From Thermaerobacter sp. FW80 (GTDB taxonomy: Bacteria > Bacillota > Sulfobacillia > Thermaerobacterales > Thermaerobacteraceae): a DNA stretch of 24,000 bases. The notes under the pieces are model-generated. The model did no database searches and was not told the origin of the DNA. It was given only the letters and a program-made list of their open reading frames with translations. Position 1 is the first letter of the stretch. Each line of letters starts with the position of its first letter. The stretch lies in the NCBI RefSeq assembly GCF_004634385.1, contig NZ_CP037895.1, positions 633,245-657,244 on the forward strand, in the 5' to 3' direction. Positions 7,468 through 18,205 of the stretch are shown in pieces. A program made the translations under genes and the position numbers.

Positions 7468-9080
7468 CGCGTCGGCGCCGCCGCGTCGACGCCGCCCGGC
7501 CCGCCGCCCGCACCCGTCCGGATGTCATCGGTGTCGACGAAGGCGACCAGCACGCTGTTGGCCACCGGCACCGCCGCCGGGCTGAGCCGGATCCGTCCCC
7601 CCTCGCGAACCAGCCACCCCTCCTCCAGCAGCCGCCGGATCGCCCTGGGGAAGGCCTCCTCCGGGGTCAACCCGAAGCGGCGCGCGAACCGGCCCTCGTC
7701 GACCCCCTCCGCCAGCCGCAGGCCGAGGATCATGGTGTCCTCCATCGCCCGTCGCCGATCCACCCGCTCCGTGACGTCCACCGGCAGCCGGCCCTCGGCC
7801 AGGGCGGCCGCGTAGGCCATGGGGTGGAGCCGGTTGCGCCGCCGCTCGCCGCGCCAGCAGGACCAGGCCCCCGGCCCCGCCCCCAGGTAGGAGCCGTTGA
7901 GCCAGTACACCCGGTTGTGCACCGACTCCCTCCCCGGTCGGGCGTAGTTGGAGATCTCGTACCGGACGAACCCGGCCTCGCCCAGCACCTCGTACGCGCG
8001 ATCGAACATGGCCCGCTCGGCGTCCTCGCCGGGCAGCTGGAGCCGGCCCGCCTCCCACTCCCGGTAGAAGGGCGTGCCGGGATGGAGCTCGAGCCCGTAG
8101 CAGGAGACGTGCTCGGGTCCCAGGTCGACCACCGCCCGCAACGACGCCTCCCACTGCTCCAGGCTCTGGCCCGGCAGGCCGAAGATCAGGTCGACGTTCA
8201 CGTTGTCGAACCCGGCCCGCCGCACCCGCCGGTAGGTGGCGCAGAAGTCGGCCCAGGTGTGGTCGCGACCGATGGCCCGCAACAGCTCGTCCTGCACGGC
8301 CTGCAGGCCCAGGCTGAGGCGGTTGACGCCCCCGTCCCGCAGGACGGCCAACCGCTCCTCGTCCAGGGTGCCGGGGTTGCACTCCACGGTGACCTCGGCG
8401 TCCGGCGCGAGACGGAAGGCGCGGCGCACCGCCGCCAGCAGCCGCTCCAGTTCCGCCGGCTCCAGGATCGAGGGGGTGCCGCCGCCCACGTAGACCGAGA
8501 CCAGGGGCCGCGTCAGGGCCGGGTCGGCCGCCAGCAGGGCCAACTCCCGTTCGAGGGCGCCCAGGTAGCGGACCTTGCCCGCGGGGTCGAGGAGATAGGT
8601 GTTGAAGTCGCAGTAGTGGCAGCGCTGGCGGCAGTAGGGCACGTGCACGTACAGGGCCGGCCCCGCGTCCCACGCGGGCCAGGGCGCGCCGCCCTCCGCC
8701 CGGGACTGGGCCTCCCGGCACCGTTCCCGCCCCTGCCCGGCGCCGCCATCGGGACGGACAAGGGCGCCCCGGGCCGTGGCGTCCGCGGGGCCGGCGCCGA
8801 TCGAGGGCGCCGGCCCCGTCGACGCGTTCGTCCCGGAAGCCGCGGGCCCAGCGGGGGGCGAGGCCCGACGGCGGTCCGCCGGTGCCGCCGTGGGGGTCGC
8901 CGCGGCGGCCCGGCCGGTTCCTCCTGCCGGCCCGGACCCGGACGGCGCGGCCTGAGGCCCCCGGCCTGCCGGCGCTCCCGCGGCCTGGGGGGTCGGCCGT
9001 GGCGCCTGGGCGGGCACCGGGCGCGCCTCTCGCGCCTGCGCTGCACCCACGCGACCCGCTCGTGCCGGCACCGCGCTCAC
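7464..9080 (-). CDS. hemW: radical SAM heme chaperone HemW / oxygen-independent coproporphyrinogen-III oxidase-like protein (Bacillus 'hemN' position); start uncertain
   Basis: [20 protein letters not shown] (CxxxCxxC radical SAM cluster), [14 protein letters not shown], and a HemN_C-like C-terminus. In-frame GTG candidates occur at 9080 (overlapping the lepA stop as GTGA), 9071, 9050 and 9017. No ATG/GTG/TTG lies between 9017 and the Cys cluster. Track start 9230 is rejected because it overlaps lepA by 154 nt. Confidence 0.85.
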
Positions 9081-10912
9081 CGCCCCCCGCCGCGGGGCTC
9101 GTCCACCCGCAGCACGGCCATGAAGGCCTCTTGCGGGATCTCCACCCGGCCCACCTGCTTCATCCGCTTCTTGCCCTCTTTCTGCTTCTCCAGCAGCTTG
9201 CGCTTGCGGGTGACGTCGCCGCCGTAGCACTTGGCCAGCACGTTCTTCTTCAGGGCGCGGATGGTCTCGCGGGCGATGACCCGCGACCCCACCGCCGCCT
9301 GGATCGGCACGTCGAAGAGCTGGCGCGGGATCAGCTCCTTCAGCCGCTCCACCAGGGCGCGGCCGCGGGCGTAGGCCTTGTCCCGGTGGACGATGACCGA
9401 CAGGGCGTCCACCGGCTCCCCCGCCACCAGGACGTCGAGGCGCACCAGGTCCGACTCGCGATAGCCCTCCAGCTGGTAGTCCAGGGTGGCGTAGCCCTTG
9501 GACCGCGACTTCAGCTGGTCGAAGAAGTCGTACATGATCTCGGCCAGGGGGAGGCGGTACTCCAGCCGCACGCGGCGCGGATCCAGGTATTCCATGGTGA
9601 CGAACTCGCCGCGCCGCTCCTGGCAGAGCTCCATCAGCGCGCCCACGTGCTCCTTGGGCGTGAAGATCGACGCCCGGACGAAGGGCTCCAGCAGCGCTTC
9701 GATGCGGTCGCGCGGGGGCAGGTCGGCGGGGTTCTGGATCTCCCGCTCGCTGCCGTCCCGCAGCCGCACGCGATAGACCACGCTGGGCGCGGTGGTGATC
9801 AGGTCCAGGTCGTACTCCCGCTCCAGGCGTTCCTGGACGATCTCCATGTGCAGCAGGCCCAGGAAGCCGCAGCGGAAGCCGAACCCCAGCGCCTCGGAGG
9901 TCTCCGGCTCGAACACCAGCGCGGCGTCGTTCAGGCGCAGCTTCTCCAGCGCCTCCCGCAGCCGCTCGTAGTCGCCCGGGTCGACGGGGTAGAGCCCCGT
10001 GAACACCATCGGCTTGGCCGGCTGATAGCCCGGGAGCGGCTCCCGGGCAGGGCGGTCGACCAGGGTGATGGTGTCGCCCACCCGGCAGTCCCGCACGTTC
10101 TTGATGCCGGCGGCGACGAAGCCCACCTCCCCGGCGGCCAGCTCGTCCACCGGGACCAGGAAGGGGCGGAAGGTGCCCAGCTGGTCGACCTCGAACTCGG
10201 CGCCCGAGGCCATCAGCCGGATCCGGTCGCCCGGCCGCACCCGCCCGTCCCGCACCCGCACGTAGGCGATGACGCCGCGGTAGGCATCGTAGTGGCTGTC
10301 GAACACCAGCGCCCGCAGCGGCGCCTCGGGGTCGCCGGAGGGCGGCGGGATCCGCCGCACGACGGCCTCCAGGAGGTCGTCCACGCCGGTGCCCTCCTTG
10401 GCGGACACCAGTAGCACCTCCGCCGGGTCGAACCCCAGGTCCGCCAGCTGCTGGCGCACCTCGTCGGGCCGGGCGGCGGGCAGGTCGATCTTGTTGATGA
10501 CGGGGATCAGGGTCAGGTTGGCGTCCAGGGCGAGATACAGGTTGGCCACGGTCTGGGCCTCCACGCCCTGGGTGGCGTCGACCAGCAGGATCGCGCCCTC
10601 GCAGGCGGCCAGGGCGCGGGAGACCTCGTAGCTGAAGTCCACGTGGCCGGGGGTGTCGATCAGGTGCAGCATGTACTCCTGGCCATCGGCCGCGCGGTAG
10701 AACATGCGCACCGCCTGGGCCTTGATGGTGATGCCCCGCTCCCGTTCCAGGTCCATCATGTCCAGCACCTGGTCGCGCCGCTCGCGGTCGCCGATGGTGC
10801 CGGTGGACTCCAGCAGGCGGTCGGCCAGGGTGGACTTGCCGTGGTCGATGTGGGCGATGATGCAGAAGTTGCGGATGCGGGCCTGGTGGCCCCGTGCTCG
10901 CTGGTCACTCAT
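9077..10912 (-). CDS. lepA: translation elongation factor 4 (LepA)
   Basis: [48 protein letters not shown], and the LepA-specific C-terminus ...[40 protein letters not shown]. Confidence 0.97.
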
Positions 10913-10940: not shown

Positions 10941-11777
10941 TCAATCGGGCGGGATGCCCAACGCCTGCGCGATGGCGGACCACAGCGCCTCGTCGGGCAC
11001 GGCCCCGTCCAGGGCGACCCGGTCGTTGATCACCGTCTTCGGCACGGCCCAGACCTGGTACTGACGCGCCAGCTGCGGGAAGGAGCTGGCCTCCACGGCC
11101 TCCGCCACCACCCGCGGGCTGGCCAGGGCGAGTTGCATCGCGGAGCGCACGGCCCGCGGGCAGTGGGGTCACGTCGGGGTGAAGAACACCCGCAGGTGGA
11201 CGGTTTCCCCGGCCTCCTCCAGCCGCGCCAACCGGCGGGGGTCCAGGGGACCGGTGGGCGTGGGGGACGCCTCCCCCTCCTCGGGGCCGGCACCGTCCGG
11301 CCGCGAACCGGCCGCGGCCCCGGCATCGCCGGGATGTGCCGCCGGGGGTCGCGGGGCCGTGGCTTCCGCGCCGGCGCCGGCCCGGCCGGCGTCGGCGCCC
11401 GCTTCCGGCGTCGAGGCAGGGCGTCCCGCCTCGACCAGCGCCTCCAGGAGGCTGGCGAACTCGTAGCCCAGCGGCGCCCCGACGAAGCGCACCCGGCCCG
11501 CGGCCCGCCCATGGATCACCAGGGTGGGCGTCCGCTCCACCCCCAGTTCCCGCCCCCGCTCGGCCTCCCGGTCGAGGTCGCGCACCGTGAGGCGAAGGTG
11601 GGGGCTGAGCGCGCAGACCTCCTCGAGGAGCTGGACCGTCTCCTCGCACCGCGGGCACTCCCGGCCCGGGATGATCAGGCGGGTGTCGCGGACGAAGAGC
11701 TCGACCTCCACCGGCGCCGTCACGCCCTGGAGCTGCTGGGCGACGGCCTGCCGCTGGGACTCCGTCAGGATCGCCAC
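10941..11777 (-). CDS. two-domain glutaredoxin-like protein disulfide oxidoreductase (PDO family) with an in-frame TGA at 11171-11169 (candidate selenocysteine; otherwise a nonsense-disrupted gene)
   Basis: Track ORFs 11169..11870 and 10941..11150 share one frame. The N-terminal unit carries CPRC ([20 protein letters not shown] ... [21 protein letters not shown]). The C-terminal unit reads [27 protein letters not shown]...[15 protein letters not shown] start 11777 has AGGGAGG 10 nt upstream. Confidence 0.78.
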
Positions 11778-11797
11778 GGACCCATCGCCTCCCTGCC

Positions 11798-11833
11798 GCG
11801 GCGGTTCCCGGTCGCCCGGCCGGGAACCGCCGC
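11798..11833 (-). other. perfect 14-bp GC-rich hairpin in the spoIIP / oxidoreductase intergenic region
   Basis: GCGGCGGTTCCCGG / CCGGGAACCGCCGC arms flank an 8-nt loop. The hairpin ends 4 nt before the GGGAGG ribosome-binding site of the downstream gene. No U-tract follows. Function is unknown; it could be a U-less terminator, an mRNA end protector, or an RBS-occluding element. Confidence 0.5.
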
Positions 11834-11885
11834 TACCGTTGAGCATAGCGGCGCGGGCCCGCGGCCACAAGCCTCGCCCCCGGGG

Positions 11886-11992
11886 CCCGGCGGCTTGACG
11901 CCGGGCGGGCCTTGGAGGTGGACGCCGCGCGGGAGCGGGACGGGGCGTCGCGCCCTACCCCGGCGGCTTGACGCCGGGTGGGCACTGGAAGG
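11886..11992 (-). repeat. direct duplication (33-34 nt, two copies) of the spoIIP 3' end, each copy containing a 7-bp hairpin
   Basis: Copy 1 (11886-11918) is cccggcggcttgacgccgggcgggccttggagg. Copy 2 (11959-11992) is cccggcggcttgacgccgggtgggcactggaagg. Each contains CCCGGCG-N6-CGCCGGG. Copy 2 covers the last spoIIP codons and its stop. Confidence 0.6.
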
Positions 11993-12995
11993 GCCGGTCG
12001 GCCTGGGGGACCCTGCCGGCCTCGATCACCGCCGCGAGGGCCTCGCCGAACATCCGCGCGCTGCGCTCGGCCTCCGCGGGCGTGTTCCCGTAGCCGCCGA
12101 TCTCGACCAGCACCGCCCCGGGCCGCACATGCTGGTTGTAGCGGTTCTCCGAGACCAGCACGCCCTTGACCAACCCCGGATGGCGCCGCTCGAGCTCGGC
12201 CACCAGCCACTGCACGAAGCAGTAGTTCTTGTGCCACTGGGGATGCTCGAGCCGCCGGTCGGTGCCCACCACGAACAGGATGCTGGCCGCCGGCTGGCCC
12301 CCGACCCGCGTCAGGGTGGCGTCCCGTCCCACCCCGTCGCGGTGGATGTCCAGCACCACGTCCACCGTCGGGTACGCGTCCAGGAGGCCGGGCCGGTCCC
12401 CGTCGCCGACCAAGGCTGCCAGGGACCGCTGATAGTTGCCGATGCGCGTCACCCGCTCCCCGTCCCGGTCGAAGACCTGGCGCAGGTGGACGGTGCCGAT
12501 GCCGCGTTCCTCCAGCACCTGCTGCACCACCGTCCCCACGCCGACCACGCTGGCCCCGGGGTCGCTGGTGAAGGCCTCCACCGCCGGGTCGAACCCCGTC
12601 CCCGCCGGCACCGCGCCCACGTAGGCCTCGCTGGTGTGGGTGTGGTAGATCAACACCCGCGGCCGGTCGCCCGCGACGGCCACCTCGCCGTCGTCCGCCG
12701 CCTCGGGGCGGAAGCGGGGCAGCCCACCGGCCAGGACGTCCGGCGGAGCCAGCCGCCCCACCACCGGCCCTCCCTCCTCCTCGAAGATCTCCAGGGGATG
12801 GGCCCCGGGGAACTGGCTGGCGACCAGGGTCACCGGCTCGTCCAGGCGAACGCCGGCGATCCTCTCCGTCAGCAGGTCGGCCAGGCGTCGCCCCAGGGGG
12901 CCGGTGGCGGAGCCGCGGCCGCCGGCCGGGGATCCCGCCGCCCCGTCCGACGCGCCCTGGGCCCCGGGTGGGGGGACGGGGCCGAACCGGGCCAC
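11955..12995 (-). CDS. spoIIP: stage II sporulation protein P (SpoIIP) catalytic portion; lacks a membrane anchor as called
   Basis: RVLIYHTHTSEAY, ERGIGT, VVLDIHRDG, ILFVVG, RHPGL, RYNQH and VLVEIGGYGNTPAEAERSA are colinear with B. subtilis SpoIIP (FIYHTHNTESY ... DIHRD ... FVVG ... YPGL ... NQD ... LLEFGG). The first in-frame start is GTG 12995. Confidence 0.85.
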   Translation of the reverse strand: MARFGPVPPPGAQGASDGAAGSPAGGRGSATGPLGRRLADLLTERIAGVRLDEPVTLVASQFPGAHPLEIFEEEGGPVVGRLAPPDVLAGGLPRFRPEAADDGEVAVAGDRPRVLIYHTHTSEAYVGAVPAGTGFDPAVEAFTSDPGASVVGVGTVVQQVLEERGIGTVHLRQVFDRDGERVTRIGNYQRSLAALVGDGDRPGLLDAYPTVDVVLDIHRDGVGRDATLTRVGGQPAASILFVVGTDRRLEHPQWHKNYCFVQWLVAELERRHPGLVKGVLVSENRYNQHVRPGAVLVEIGGYGNTPAEAERSARMFGEALAAVIEAGRVPQADRPFQCPPGVKPPG

Positions 12996-13912
12996 ATCGC
13001 GTCGAGGACCGCCCGCCAGCCCCAGAGCCGCTCCGCCAGGGCCTGCCAGAGGTCGGGCTGCGCCTCGGCACCGCCGTCGCCCCCGGGACCCCTCGCGTCG
13101 GATCGCGAGGCCGGGTCGGAGGCCTCACCGGCAGCGGTCTGCCCCCCGCCCGCGGCGGGGGCGAAGCCGGCGCCTGCCGCGGGCGCGCCCTCGCCTCCGG
13201 GTCCCGCGGCCGGGCCGGGGTCGCGGCTGCCGCCGGCCCCGGCGCCCTCCCCGCTCCCGTCCCCGGTGCCGCGGCGGTCGGCGGACGCCTCCCCGGCCGG
13301 GGACCGAGGGGGCGCTGCGGGGCCGGTCTCGCCGGCGGTGGCGGGGAACCGCGGGCTCAGGGCGGGCACGGCGGGTTCGTCCGCCCCCTGGCGCGCCGCG
13401 GAGGAGGCGGCGCCGAAAGACGGGGCGGCACCCGCCACCGGTGCGCCGCCCGCTGCCGGCACCCCCGGCCCCCCGACCGGGGAGCGATCCCACGGCAGCC
13501 CCCCGCCCAGGCCGGCCAGGAAGAGGAAGACGGCGACGACCACCCCGGCGTACGCAGCCACGGCGGGCCACGGGTCGGGGGCTGCCTTGCCCGCGGGCGC
13601 CGGCCCGGCGGGGGCCGGGCCGGTGCCCGCGGGGCCTGCGGCGTCGGCGGGTACGGCGGCCTGCTCGCCCGGGCCCTCTTCGGAGCCGAGGCCGCCGGGC
13701 CCCAGCGGCGGGGCGCCGGCCATCGCCTGCAGGCGGCCCGCGTCGCCCCTTGGCGCCGTCGGCGCCCTCCGGGCGAGGCTTCGGCCGCCGTCGTCGGCGG
13801 TCCCGACGGCGCGCCGTCGGGACCGCCCGGCGGGAAGGGTGGCGGCCCCCGCCGTCGAGCCCTCGGGCCCACCGGCGCCCGGACCGGCCTGCACCCCATC
13901 GCCACGCCCCAA
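12869..13912 (-). CDS. membrane-anchored low-complexity ORF; probably the displaced 5' part of spoIIP in another frame
   Basis: High G/C third-position bias. One clear TM segment, WPAVAAYAGVVVAVFLFLAGLGG (about 13500-13570), followed by a Gly/Ala/Pro linker and ...DLWQALAERLWGWRAVLDA. Overlaps the spoIIP ORF by 127 nt in a different frame. Start unclear (TTG 13912 or ATG 13723). Confidence 0.4.
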   Translation of the reverse strand: MGRGDGVQAGPGAGGPEGSTAGAATLPAGRSRRRAVGTADDGGRSLARRAPTAPRGDAGRLQAMAGAPPLGPGGLGSEEGPGEQAAVPADAAGPAGTGPAPAGPAPAGKAAPDPWPAVAAYAGVVVAVFLFLAGLGGGLPWDRSPVGGPGVPAAGGAPVAGAAPSFGAASSAARQGADEPAVPALSPRFPATAGETGPAAPPRSPAGEASADRRGTGDGSGEGAGAGGSRDPGPAAGPGGEGAPAAGAGFAPAAGGGQTAAGEASDPASRSDARGPGGDGGAEAQPDLWQALAERLWGWRAVLDAMWPGSAPSPHPGPRARRTGRRDPRPAAAAPPPAPWGDAWPTC

Positions 13913-14884
13913 CGGCCCAGCCGGTGCCGGCCGGCCGCAGGCGGGCGGGCCGACCGCCCCTCCCCGGCCGCGCCGCTGCCCATGGTCGCCCGCCGGCGCC
14001 GCCGCGGGCTCACCGGGGAACCCGCCGCGCCCCCGGTCCCCTCCCGCGCCGGGCGATGCCGCGTGCTCGCTCCCGCTGCCCGCGAGGCGGCCCTCGGCAG
14101 GGCCTCCCCCGCCTTGGTCGCCGGAGCGCCCCGGATGCCCCGGCCACCGCGGGGGGTGGCCGGGGCTCCGAGCGCGCCCGGGGCGTGGGCACCGACGGCA
14201 GGCGATGGCCCAGTGGCCCGCGGCCCCACCCGGGAGGCCGGCGCGGTCGGCGCCGCAGCCGGCGGCGCGGCCAGCCCCCCGCCCGTCGCCTCGCTCGCCG
14301 CCCGGGACGCCGCACCGTCCCCGGGCGCCAGGACGGCGTGGGATGCCTTCGGCGGAGCCGCTCCGCCCATCCCGGCGGGGGACCGTTCGTCGCCTGCCGC
14401 CCCGATCGATGCATCCCCGTCGCCCGGGGCCGGTTCGTCCGGGGTCTCGGGTCGCGATGCACCGGGCGTCGGGTCGGCGGCGGGCCGCGGTCGTCGCTGG
14501 GGCGCGGTGCCGGCCGCGGGCGCCGGCACCGCAGGGGAGGGGCGCGCCGGACCGCCCGTAGGCGTCGTCTCGGGACGCGGCGCACCGGCCGACGGGGGCT
14601 GGCTTGCCGGAGGGCGATGCGCGGGCATGGCTGTCCCCCCATTCGCCTCCGCTTGCACACCTATGCGCCGGTGGACGGGGTCATGCCGGGGCGGCGGTGA
14701 AGGGAGCCGGGCCGCGGAGGCGCGAGGGCCGGGCATGGCCCAGCGTGGCGGGAATGGGTGGCGCCTGGGCGCGGCGGAGTTCGGGCCCAGCAGGCGAGCC
14801 GGAGGGGGCCGGGCGGCCCTGGGCCTCGTACGCGGGCCTCGGCCGATGGGTCCGCTGGCGGGTTCGGCGACGGGAGCCTCGGGC

Positions 14885-15179
14885 GAGGCAACCGAACGGC
14901 AAGGGTCGCTGCGGGGGCGGCGCGATCGAGTCCCCGCCTTCCCTCGCCTCGGCTTTCGCAGTGCACCGTCTGGTACGAAGAAGGGGGCTCGTGCTCGACT
15001 GGGACGCGACGTGGCCGGCATCTCCGATCCTGATGGCCAGCCCCGGCGGCCGCCGTCGGGCCGCCGTCGCCGGCAGGGGCCCGGAGACGGAGAACGCCCG
15101 TGGACGGGCCGGACGTCCTGCAGCCCGGCAGGCGCTCCCCGAGGAAGCGGGAAGCCGGCACCGACTCCCGGACGGGTAA
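14885..15179 (+). pseudogene. tnpB: tnpB pseudogene fragment (C-terminal ~65-95 codons only)
   Basis: The translation ...GRCGGGAIESPPSLASAFAVHRLVRRRGLVLDWDATWPAS...AVAGRGPETENARGRAGRPAARQALPEEAGSRHRLPDG* aligns with the intact TnpB C-terminus CSRCGAVKPSLPLSQRVFRCEECGLVLDRDENAARNL...AVAGSGPETLNARGRDGRPALRQAVPEEAGSRRRLIAG*. The zinc-finger cysteines and the RuvC-III DRDxNAA motif are destroyed, and the N-terminal ~330 aa are missing. Confidence 0.65.
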
Positions 15180-15267
15180 GACCGGCGCGGCCGATCCGCG
15201 AGGATCGGCTGCCCGCAACCGACAGGGATCGGCTCCCGGCCATCGACGACGCGGTCTCAGGTCACGG
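14885..15267 (+). mobile_element. relic of an IS200/IS605-family element: degraded tnpB 3' end plus right end / omega-RNA region
   Basis: Colinear with intact-copy positions 17968-18205; roughly three quarters of bases are identical by eye, for example GGGCTCGTGCTCGAC at 14985 versus 17968 and GGCCCGGAGACG at 15078 versus 18040. Both copies end in TCAGGT(A/C)ACGG. Similarity is weaker back to about 14885. The relic carries an internal duplication of about 24 nt (GGATCGGCT twice). Confidence 0.7.
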
Positions 15268-16497: not shown

Positions 16498-16528
16498 AGC
16501 CGCTTCGCCAGGAAGCGGCTTTTGCTTT
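16498..16528 (+). terminator. rho-independent terminator of rpsT
   Basis: AGCCGCUUC-GCCAG-GAAGCGGCU (9-bp stem, 5-nt loop) followed by UUUGCUUUG. Confidence 0.75.
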
Positions 16529-16590
16529 GCTGCGGGTGCTTGCTGCGGGTGCTTTGCTGCGGGGGCTTGGCCCGGGTGCTCTGCGCGGGC
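16526..16590. repeat. tandem repeat, 13-14 nt unit (T)TTGCTGCGGGTGC, about 4.5 copies decaying toward the 3' side
   Basis: TTTGCTGCGGGTGC / TTGCTGCGGGTGC / TTTGCTGCGGGGGC / TTGGCCCGGGTGC / TCTGCGCGGGC, read directly from the sequence. Confidence 0.7.
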
Positions 16591-16734
16591 CGATGCCGGA
16601 TGCCGCCGATGCCCCTCCCGGACCACGACGCCGCAGCGGCTTCCCTCGGTCCCGCCACCCCCACGCCGCCCATCTCCACGGGGGATGGCGGTTGGCCACC
16701 ACCGGAGCCTCCCCGCGCAGCTCCGGGAGGGCTG

Positions 16735-18205
16735 AGAACAGCTAGCGCGTTTCTTATCGTTTCTCGCCCAACGTCATCAAATCTTGGCATCACCTCCCCT
16801 CCTCGGCCGGCTTGTTGTCTCAGAACAGATGTTCTGATACGCTGTCCTTGGATGATTTTGGGGGGCTTCCCCATGCGTGTGTTGCAGGCGTACCGCTTCG
16901 CCCTCGACCCCACGCCCCGCCAGCAGCGGGCGCTGGCCTCCCACGTGGGCGCCCGCCGCTTTGCCTTCAACTGGGGGCTCGCCCTGGTGAAGGAGCGCCT
17001 GGAAGCCCGTGCCCGGGGCGAGGATGTGGAGGTGCCGTGGACGCTTCCGGACTTGCGTCGGGAGTGGAACCGGCAAAAGCACCTCATCGCCCCCTGGTGG
17101 CGGGAGAACTCGAAGGAAGCCTACTCCTCCGGCCTGAACGGGCTGGCCCGGGCGCTTCAGAACTGGTCAAAAAGTCACAAGGGGCAACGCAAGGGCCGCC
17201 GGGTGGGGTTCCCCCGGTTCCGGAAGAAGGGCCGAGGGAGGGAATCGGTGCGGTTCACCACCGGCGCGATCCGGGTGGACGACAAGAGCCACGTCGTCCT
17301 GCCCCGGATTGGGCGGGTGAAGACCCACGAGCCGACCACGGCCCTGCTCCGGCGCATCCAGACAGGGACGGCCCGCATCCTATCCGCCACGGTTACCCGG
17401 GAAGGGGGCCGCTGGTTCGTCAGCTTTACCTGCGAGGTGGAGCGGCAGACGGGCCGCCCCCGGTTCCCCTGGAGGGTCGTCGGCGTCGATGCGGGCGTCA
17501 AGCACCTGGCGGTGCTCTCCACCGGTGAGGTCTGCCCCAATCCCCGAGCGCTGGAGAAGAACCTGAAACAACTGGCCCGGTGGAACCGCGCCCTGGCCCG
17601 CCGGCAGAAGGGCAGGCGGGGGTGGCAAAAGGCCCGCCGCCGGCTGGCCCGGCTCCATGGGCGGGTCCGGAACATCCGCCAGGACGCGCTTCACAAGCTG
17701 ACGCACCACCTAGCGAGCACCTATGGCGTGGTGGTCGTCGAACAACTGAACGCGGCGGGCATGCTGAAGAACCGGCGGCTTGCCCGGGCGCTGGCCGATG
17801 CGGCCCTGGCGGAGATCCGCCGCCAGCTCAGGTATAAGTGTCCCTGGCACGGCGCGGTCCTAGTCGAAGCACCGCCCTTCTATCCCAGCAGCAAACGTTG
17901 TTCCCGGTGCGGCGCGGTCAAGCCGTCGCTGCCGCTTTCACAGCGTGTTTTCCGCTGTGAGGAATGCGGGCTCGTGCTCGACCGGGACGAAAACGCGGCC
18001 CGAAATCTCGCGACGCTGGTTGCCGCCGTCGCCGGGAGTGGCCCGGAGACGTTAAACGCCCGTGGACGGGACGGAAGACCTGCCCTCCGGCAGGCGGTCC
18101 CGGAGGAAGCGGGAAGCCGGCGCCGGCTCATCGCTGGGTAAGACCGGCACCGTCGATCCGTGAGGATCGACTGCCTGAAACAGATGACGATATTTCAGGT
18201 AACGG
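16735..18205 (+). mobile_element. tnpB-only IS200/IS605-family element (IS1341-like); left boundary approximate
   Basis: A single TnpB ORF with no tnpA. The sequence is visibly more A/T-rich than its flanks. Left-end-side hairpin CAGAAC-AGAT-GTTCTG at 16821-16836. The right end is set where similarity to the relic copy stops (TCAGGTAACGG, 18195-18205). The left end is placed only by the drop in GC content near 16735-16750. Confidence 0.72.
16873..18141 (+). CDS. tnpB: RNA-guided endonuclease TnpB (IS200/IS605 OrfB family), apparently intact
   Basis: MRVLQAYRFALDPTPRQQRAL (typical OrfB N-terminus). RuvC-I VVGVDAGVKHLAV, RuvC-II VVVVEQLNAAGM, zinc finger CSRCG...CEECG, RuvC-III LVLDRDENAARNL. 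ATG 16873; 422 aa. Confidence 0.93.
   Translation: MRVLQAYRFALDPTPRQQRALASHVGARRFAFNWGLALVKERLEARARGEDVEVPWTLPDLRREWNRQKHLIAPWWRENSKEAYSSGLNGLARALQNWSKSHKGQRKGRRVGFPRFRKKGRGRESVRFTTGAIRVDDKSHVVLPRIGRVKTHEPTTALLRRIQTGTARILSATVTREGGRWFVSFTCEVERQTGRPRFPWRVVGVDAGVKHLAVLSTGEVCPNPRALEKNLKQLARWNRALARRQKGRRGWQKARRRLARLHGRVRNIRQDALHKLTHHLASTYGVVVVEQLNAAGMLKNRRLARALADAALAEIRRQLRYKCPWHGAVLVEAPPFYPSSKRCSRCGAVKPSLPLSQRVFRCEECGLVLDRDENAARNLATLVAAVAGSGPETLNARGRDGRPALRQAVPEEAGSRRRLIAG

Follow-up and report, generated by a model that had tools for sequence, protein, structure and literature searches.

The question posed by this locus is whether a TGA codon inside a gene acts as a stop signal or is read as selenocysteine (Sec). 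In the 24,000-nucleotide stretch of Thermaerobacter sp. FW80 DNA that we analysed (the window), the open reading frames 11169..11870 and 10941..11150, both on the minus strand, lie in one frame and are split by a TGA at 11171-11169 alone, just as the first-pass annotation had described. That annotation proposed Sec insertion at this codon, and our analysis supports the proposal through the conservation of the TGA, a Sec/Cys pair, the dN/dS of the codons beyond it, a candidate SECIS hairpin that we call H1, and the listing of the genus as Sec-utilising. Judged on this comparative evidence, the gene very probably encodes a 278-residue selenoprotein of the protein disulfide oxidoreductase (PDO) or "AhpF N-terminal-domain homologue" family, with Sec at UGA 11171-11169.

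Reading frame and protein family

The gene occupies 10941..11777 on the minus strand and comprises 278 codons and a stop, an assignment based on the translation, the NCBIfam model TIGR02187.2 and the structure PDB 1A8L. It begins at a GTG codon (11777-11775, minus strand) with a Shine-Dalgarno-like GGGAGG, read in the sequence, 10 nt 5' of it (11788..11793, minus strand). This start matches the N-termini of proteins P0001-P0005, and the start positions of the orthologues are all equal to it. Between the GTG and the true stop, which is likewise a TGA (10941..10943, minus strand) and has no SECIS-like context 3' of it, the frame contains a single in-frame TGA, at 11169..11171 on the minus strand. 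This putative Sec codon is residue 203, the first position of a U-P-H-C active site (residues 203-206; 11171-11160, minus strand) within the string T-P-T-[TGA]-P-H-C-P-R-A-V, which starts at residue 200 and reads …VFFTPT-U-PHCPRAV… in the protein. The gene-like G/C bias at third codon positions reported beyond the TGA is indeed present: GC by codon position over the 75 codons 3' of the TGA is 0.76/0.52/0.96, like that of genuine genes in this window of ~76% GC.

With Cys written for U, the product scores 193.7 bits against TIGR02187.2 ('PDO_seleno_TRX'), above the curated equivalog cutoff of 185, and Pfam identifies Thioredoxin_3 in the C-terminal fold. The best match among solved structures is the Pyrococcus furiosus PDO 1A8L (E=9e-23, both folds covered), and the PDOs of P. 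horikoshii, Aquifex aeolicus and Aeropyrum pernix are matched as well. By sequence, then, the protein has two tandem thioredoxin folds, the stretches 22-120 and 181-272 being matched to 1A8L, 1J08, 2AYT and 2HLS, and the model score together with the structure matches over both folds bears out the earlier assignment to a two-thioredoxin-fold, PDO-type family. The structure search also returned the AhpF N-terminal domain as a weaker match to the second fold (E=1e-7 to 2e-6). The first fold carries a CPRC of its own (residues 41-44; 11646..11657, minus strand), as had been noted for the N-terminal unit, and this motif is aligned with CQYC of the P. furiosus enzyme. The second fold carries the UPHC: where PDOs and TIGR02187.2 have the C-terminal redox motif TPTCP[HY]CP, with U for the first C in selenoprotein members, this gene reads TPT-TGA-PHCP. 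Two alignments confirm that the TGA stands where the second CxxC has its opening Cys: in 1A8L it falls opposite the leading Cys of CPYC, and 63 homologous loci have TGC/TGT at this codon.

The protein departs from its family in size. PDOs are compact, at ~210-245 residues with a short connection between the folds, whereas this protein has 278 residues and a 57-residue, low-complexity insertion rich in Ala, Gly, Pro and Glu between CPRC fold and UPHC fold (residues 121-177; 11247..11417, minus strand, delimited by protein alignment). This linker is seen in Thermaerobacter sequences only, the other aligned PDOs being without it, and both its length and its sequence vary among Thermaerobacter species. 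From these alignments we take the linker to be loop variation that leaves the fold unchanged, and it is the sole unusual feature of the gene.

Conservation of the TGA and selection on the codons beyond it

The seven nearest database proteins all stop at …TPT because gene callers halted at the TGA, and the comparison was made on the DNA behind these relatives, namely T. subterraneus, T. litoralis, further Thermaerobacter assemblies, a paralogue and a distant metagenome-assembled genome (MAG). The string TGA-CCN-CAY-TGC-CCG-CGG is present in frame in T. subterraneus, T. litoralis, two further assemblies, the paralogue and the distant MAG, and the C-terminal fold is conserved past the TGA in all of the relatives' DNA that was fetched. 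The aligned codon is thus TGA in every Thermaerobacter orthologue examined, in the paralogue and in the distant MAG.

Beyond these relatives, a scan with one genome per species found TGA at the aligned codon in 13 of 80 retrieved loci and TGC/TGT in 63 of 80, counts that come from a search whose pattern required a Cys codon, whose full-length ranking favoured uninterrupted genes, and from which the Thermaerobacter genomes themselves were absent. The 13 TGA loci belong to Dehalococcoidia, Ktedonobacteria, Thermomicrobia, other Chloroflexota, an Acidobacteria MAG and an Ignavibacteria MAG, and many of the Cys-form loci have flanks identical to those of the window gene (TPTCPHCPRAV). On this alignment, the alternation of TGA with TGC/TGT at one codon is the classic Sec/Cys pair. 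Since the same codon is TGA in every Thermaerobacter copy examined, across independent assemblies, and in 13 other lineages, its position is not due to chance.

Purifying selection acts strongly on the 75 codons that follow the TGA. Across four orthologues, dN/dS over these codons is 0.08-0.14 at a dS of 0.28-0.49, and against the paralogue it is 0.35-0.43. These values bear directly on the possibility that the TGA arose as a TGC-to-TGA nonsense change or a base-call error and that the downstream part is decaying. Such an origin would require only one base change from TGC, and one distant homologue, locus L008, is indeed frameshifted after its TGA. Against it stand the same TGA in independent assemblies from at least four Thermaerobacter lineages and in a paralogue only 48% identical, the TGA at the same codon in thirteen other lineages, the low downstream dN/dS at a dS of up to 0.49, the third-position GC of 0.96, and the Thermaerobacter genes themselves, in which there are no further lesions beyond the TGA. 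Because the TGA is kept across orthologues and the paralogue and the downstream dN/dS is ~0.1, a recent nonsense mutation or base-call error, which had been raised earlier as the alternatives, is effectively refuted, and we regard decay of the gene as extremely unlikely. The one downstream lesion noted lies outside the Thermaerobacter genes. In that case (L008 3457-3790, ENA MAG contig_135915, a distant TGA form), the frameshift falls ~30 codons past the TGA, where …YPDL is followed by RRYRVTGVPK in another frame; it reflects an indel from assembly or else a copy that is genuinely decaying.

It might also be supposed that termination at this codon is normal, that the 202-residue N-terminal CPRC protein is functional by itself, and that the C-terminal fold is made from an internal start (GTG 11150) or only occasionally. 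Gene callers do annotate two open reading frames here, the N-terminal part has its own CxxC, and bacterial Sec insertion is generally inefficient, so that some truncated product is to be expected in any case. A product begun at 11150, however, would have neither of the active-site residues and would also miss the fold's first strand. Moreover, the codons between the TGA and 11150 (PHCPRA) keep their amino acids while varying synonymously (CCC/CCG, CAC/CAT), which implies translation of this stretch in the present frame. Conservation within the protein is in fact highest beyond the TGA, with ~93-96% identity as opposed to 64-67% before it, as counted on aligned translations. We therefore consider normal termination very unlikely, and continued decoding through the TGA, with Sec as the probable residue, remains the reading that we follow below.

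Two other loci in the collection deserve mention in their own right. The paralogue, at L006 3001-3777 (T. subterraneus read set SRR070356), is a TGA-containing PDO 48% identical to the window protein; it has CPGC in its first fold and the same UPHCPRAV and hairpin as the window gene. Its neighbourhood differs, with a two-component system upstream and luciferase-like, methyltransferase and AhpC/Redoxin genes downstream. A Cys-form PDO, CPYCPRAVRLAH, is encoded at L072 1501-2148 in a MAG labelled Thermaerobacter sp. SMAG_U7091 and is ~33% identical to the window protein. Its presence in a Thermaerobacter-assigned MAG suggests that the lineage, or something co-binned with it, may have both Cys and Sec versions.

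Candidate SECIS hairpins and proposed decoding of the UGA

Published criteria for bacterial SECIS (bSECIS) elements describe an apical loop of 3-9 nt, an upper stem of 4-16 bp, a G within the first two nucleotides of the loop, a distance of 16-37 nt from the UGA and a minimum free energy (MFE) of -7.5 kcal/mol or lower (PMC13188914). The best-supported candidate in this gene, H1 (11139..11158, minus strand; -11.3 kcal/mol), lies within all of these limits. Counting from the U of the UGA, its stem runs from C14-G33 through C20-G26 with U28 bulged, giving 6-7 bp, and its 5-nt apical loop, CGUGC (11151-11147), lies 17 nt past the UGA. The earlier proposal that the RNA just 3' of the UGA folds in SECIS fashion is thus upheld, with H1 as the conserved SECIS-like hairpin.

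All 20 nt of H1 are invariant in 5 of 5 Thermaerobacter copies, the paralogue included, and invariant codons are concentrated in the hairpin (6 of 7, against 14 of 39 elsewhere; p=0.02). All eight TGA forms with the PRAV motif form a six-pair helix equivalent to H1; not one of the 63 Cys forms does so, although most of them encode the same amino acids. Three independent lineages with the PRAV peptide (L008, L041 and L044) form the same six-pair helix in the same alignment columns from different sequences. When all 19 TGA forms are considered, every one fully forms one of two hairpin registers, while among the Cys forms helix A occurs in 15 of 63 and helix B in 0 of 63, helices A and B having been defined after the TGA forms had been inspected. 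In the Chloroflexota-type TGA forms the helix lies 4-6 nt farther downstream, and its outer pair 21-33, both members of which are third codon positions, covaries (GC in 6, CG in 3, AU in 2, unpaired in 0). The CGUGC loop also recurs in several of these forms, encoded in another frame. TGA forms are widespread in Chloroflexota, Acidobacteria and Ignavibacteria, with a hairpin in each at a similar distance from the UGA.

The published-criteria bSECIS filter, whose specificity is limited in GC-rich sequence, passes 18 of 19 TGA forms and 22 of 63 Cys forms (Fisher p=2.5e-6), and at >=60% GC, a composition at which it is loose, 15 of 16 and 21 of 40, respectively. Generic MFE and synonymous-shuffle z-scores revealed no significant difference between TGA and Cys forms, because GC-rich coding sequence folds too easily for a folding-energy test to separate them. 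An Rfam scan of the region yielded sub-threshold chance matches only and no SECIS family.

Two further structures were considered. H2 (11128..11141, minus strand), an alternative or additional 4-bp hairpin with the loop UGCAAC, lies 31 nt past the UGA and overlaps H1 by 3 nt. It shows one compensatory change, the pair reading G33-C42 in the window gene and C33-G42 in L001, L003 and L004, and is broken in the paralogue L006. H1 and H2 compete as the candidate SelB-binding hairpin, and either may serve. The long stem 11160-11152/11119-11111, singled out in the first-pass annotation, was rejected as the SECIS element. Its perfect 9-bp complementarity stands, and it is the MFE fold in this strain, with a z of -1.37 that is not unusual for the composition; its 3' arm, however, mutates in orthologues without compensation, and the hairpin that is conserved is the local one at 11158-11139.

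The selenium trait of the organism is the remaining element of the argument. Neither selA, selB, selC or selD nor any other selenium-related gene or tRNA lies within the 24-kb window, and the Sec trait presumed for strain FW80 is taken from published tables in which its sister species T. marianensis and T. subterraneus are both listed as Sec-utilising (PMC5029168 Table S2). The T. subterraneus read sets contain two TGA-bearing copies of the PDO family, in line with a published family count of 22 proteins in 15 organisms.

A last alternative is that the UGA is read through without Sec, for instance when a near-cognate tRNA for Trp or Cys decodes it or through local recoding. However, TGA is also the ordinary stop of the same gene (10943-10941) and the codon is thus not reassigned, and a SECIS-like hairpin follows the internal UGA. 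The position corresponds, furthermore, to the redox-active Cys in a family for which Sec/Cys pairs are documented, and sister species are recorded as Sec-utilising. Readthrough of this kind is accordingly highly improbable in our view.

Sec insertion at UGA 11171-11169 thus being our preferred reading, we picture decoding as follows. A ribosome arriving at the UGA would meet a stem-loop in the coding sequence just 3' of it, for which the best candidate is 11158-11139 with its CGUGC loop, and this structure would recruit SelB·GTP·Sec-tRNASec. Sec would then be placed at residue 203, and translation would continue through the remaining 75 codons until it reached the real TGA stop. From what is known of the family, Sec is likely to take the nucleophilic first Cys position of the C-terminal CxxC, the UPHC would cycle between selenolate/thiol and selenenylsulfide states, and the protein is predicted to reduce or isomerise disulfides. 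PDOs and the AhpF N-terminal domain suggest by analogy that it may receive electrons from an NAD(P)H-dependent flavoprotein of the thioredoxin-reductase type and pass them on to peroxiredoxins or other disulfide substrates. One improbable elaboration is that the UGA serves as a selenium-dependent switch, with cells producing a 202-residue protein made up of the single CPRC fold and a disordered tail when selenium is lacking and the 278-residue two-fold enzyme when it is available. Under this reading the unusually long, flexible, Thermaerobacter-only linker could let each fold work partly on its own, in contrast to classical PDOs with their rigid fused sheet.

Relation to known proteins and genomic neighbourhood

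Symbiobacterium is among the closer cultured relatives of Thermaerobacter. This UxxC selenoprotein family is on record in Carboxydothermus and Symbiobacterium (PMC1794560; PMC13188914; PMC9312934), with Zhang et al. 2006 reporting it from Carboxydothermus hydrogenoformans and Symbiobacterium thermophilum (PMC1794560). UxxC PDO-type selenoproteins have been catalogued since 2004 (literature 2004-2006), and the Thermaerobacter gene is an ordinary member of that family. Indeed, "seleno" is already part of the NCBIfam model name, the family being built into NCBI annotation models. Given that the family is in the literature and the genus is counted as Sec-utilising, the present finding amounts to the correct rediscovery of a known selenoprotein family. 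A full-text literature search found nothing joining Thermaerobacter to selenocysteine, or PDO to SECIS. The gene adds one more UxxC selenoprotein instance, in a thermophile genus, and opens no new question; its practical value lies in annotation. In several public assemblies the gene appears as two entries, a "hypothetical protein" plus a fragment of 65-69 residues, and these split reading frames should be joined as one selenoprotein.

The likenesses to known proteins differ in kind. The Carboxydothermus and Symbiobacterium selenoproteins share with the window protein the same NCBIfam model, the UxxC position in the second thioredoxin fold, the existence of Cys homologues and a SECIS-type hairpin just downstream, but the Thermaerobacter proteins have the 57-residue, species-variable linker. 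Structures of the P. furiosus PDO type (1A8L, 1J08, 2AYT/2YWM and 2HLS) have the same tandem thioredoxin folds, matched over residues 22-120 and 186-272 of the window protein, an N-terminal CxxC, a C-terminal CPxC and the shared flanks VF.TPTCP.CP and VPK.VI; they differ in having Cys for Sec, CPYC for UPHC, and a compact 226-243 residues without a long linker. The AhpF N-terminal domain (1HYU, 1ZYN) is significantly similar to the second fold, and it suggests a likely role as an electron shuttle from flavoprotein to peroxiredoxin. The window protein, unlike AhpF, is free-standing, with no fusion to a flavoprotein reductase, and neither ahpC nor ahpF neighbours the window gene, which is flanked by spoIIP and lepA. 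The UxxC thioredoxins and glutaredoxins of anaerobes (PMC13188914 Table 1) are likewise thioredoxin-fold proteins in which Sec takes the place of the first, nucleophilic Cys of CxxC, but they are single-domain proteins of PF00085/PF00462, whereas the window protein is a two-fold member of TIGR02187 / PF13192.

The gene order in the window is rsmE-like, prmA, dnaJ, dnaK, grpE, hrcA, (hemN), lepA, the selenoprotein gene, spoIIP, a holin-like gene, rpsT, an IS605-type tnpB, holA, comEC and comEA, which is the usual Firmicutes arrangement. The lepA product (9077-10912, minus strand) is identical to QBS36936.1/WP_135224447.1 of Thermaerobacter sp. FW80. Close to the selenoprotein gene we observed a palindromic 20-nt hairpin, CCCGGCGTCAAGCCGCCGGG, with a 7-bp GC stem and a 6-nt loop, in two exact copies 73 nt apart on the minus strand (11886-11905 and 11959-11978), one over the last spoIIP codons and the other in the spacer that precedes the selenoprotein gene. 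A T-tract, a sigma-70 promoter and an intrinsic terminator consensus are all absent from this region.

Farther along, the IS605-type TnpB reading frame (16522-18141, plus strand) has OrfB_IS605, Cas12f1-like TNB and HTH domains. An Rfam "Transposase-2 RNA" match (70.8 bits; 18106-18175) overlaps the 3' end of tnpB, as a TnpB guide (omega) RNA should, and the stretch as a whole covers 16522-18184. An orphan copy of this 163-nt tnpB end, 83% identical, lies 2962 nt upstream (15060-15222, plus strand; Rfam match 15144-15213) with no tnpB adjoining it, and the two copies flank the holin-like gene, rpsT and tnpB. Finally, a long open frame of ~85% GC without a Pfam match lies upstream of the SpoIIP domain (12869-14680, minus strand), with GC by codon position of 0.85/0.81/0.87. 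Since the gene caller for T. litoralis makes SpoIIP 752 residues long, this frame may belong to SpoIIP as a low-complexity extension of its N-terminus instead of being a gene of its own.
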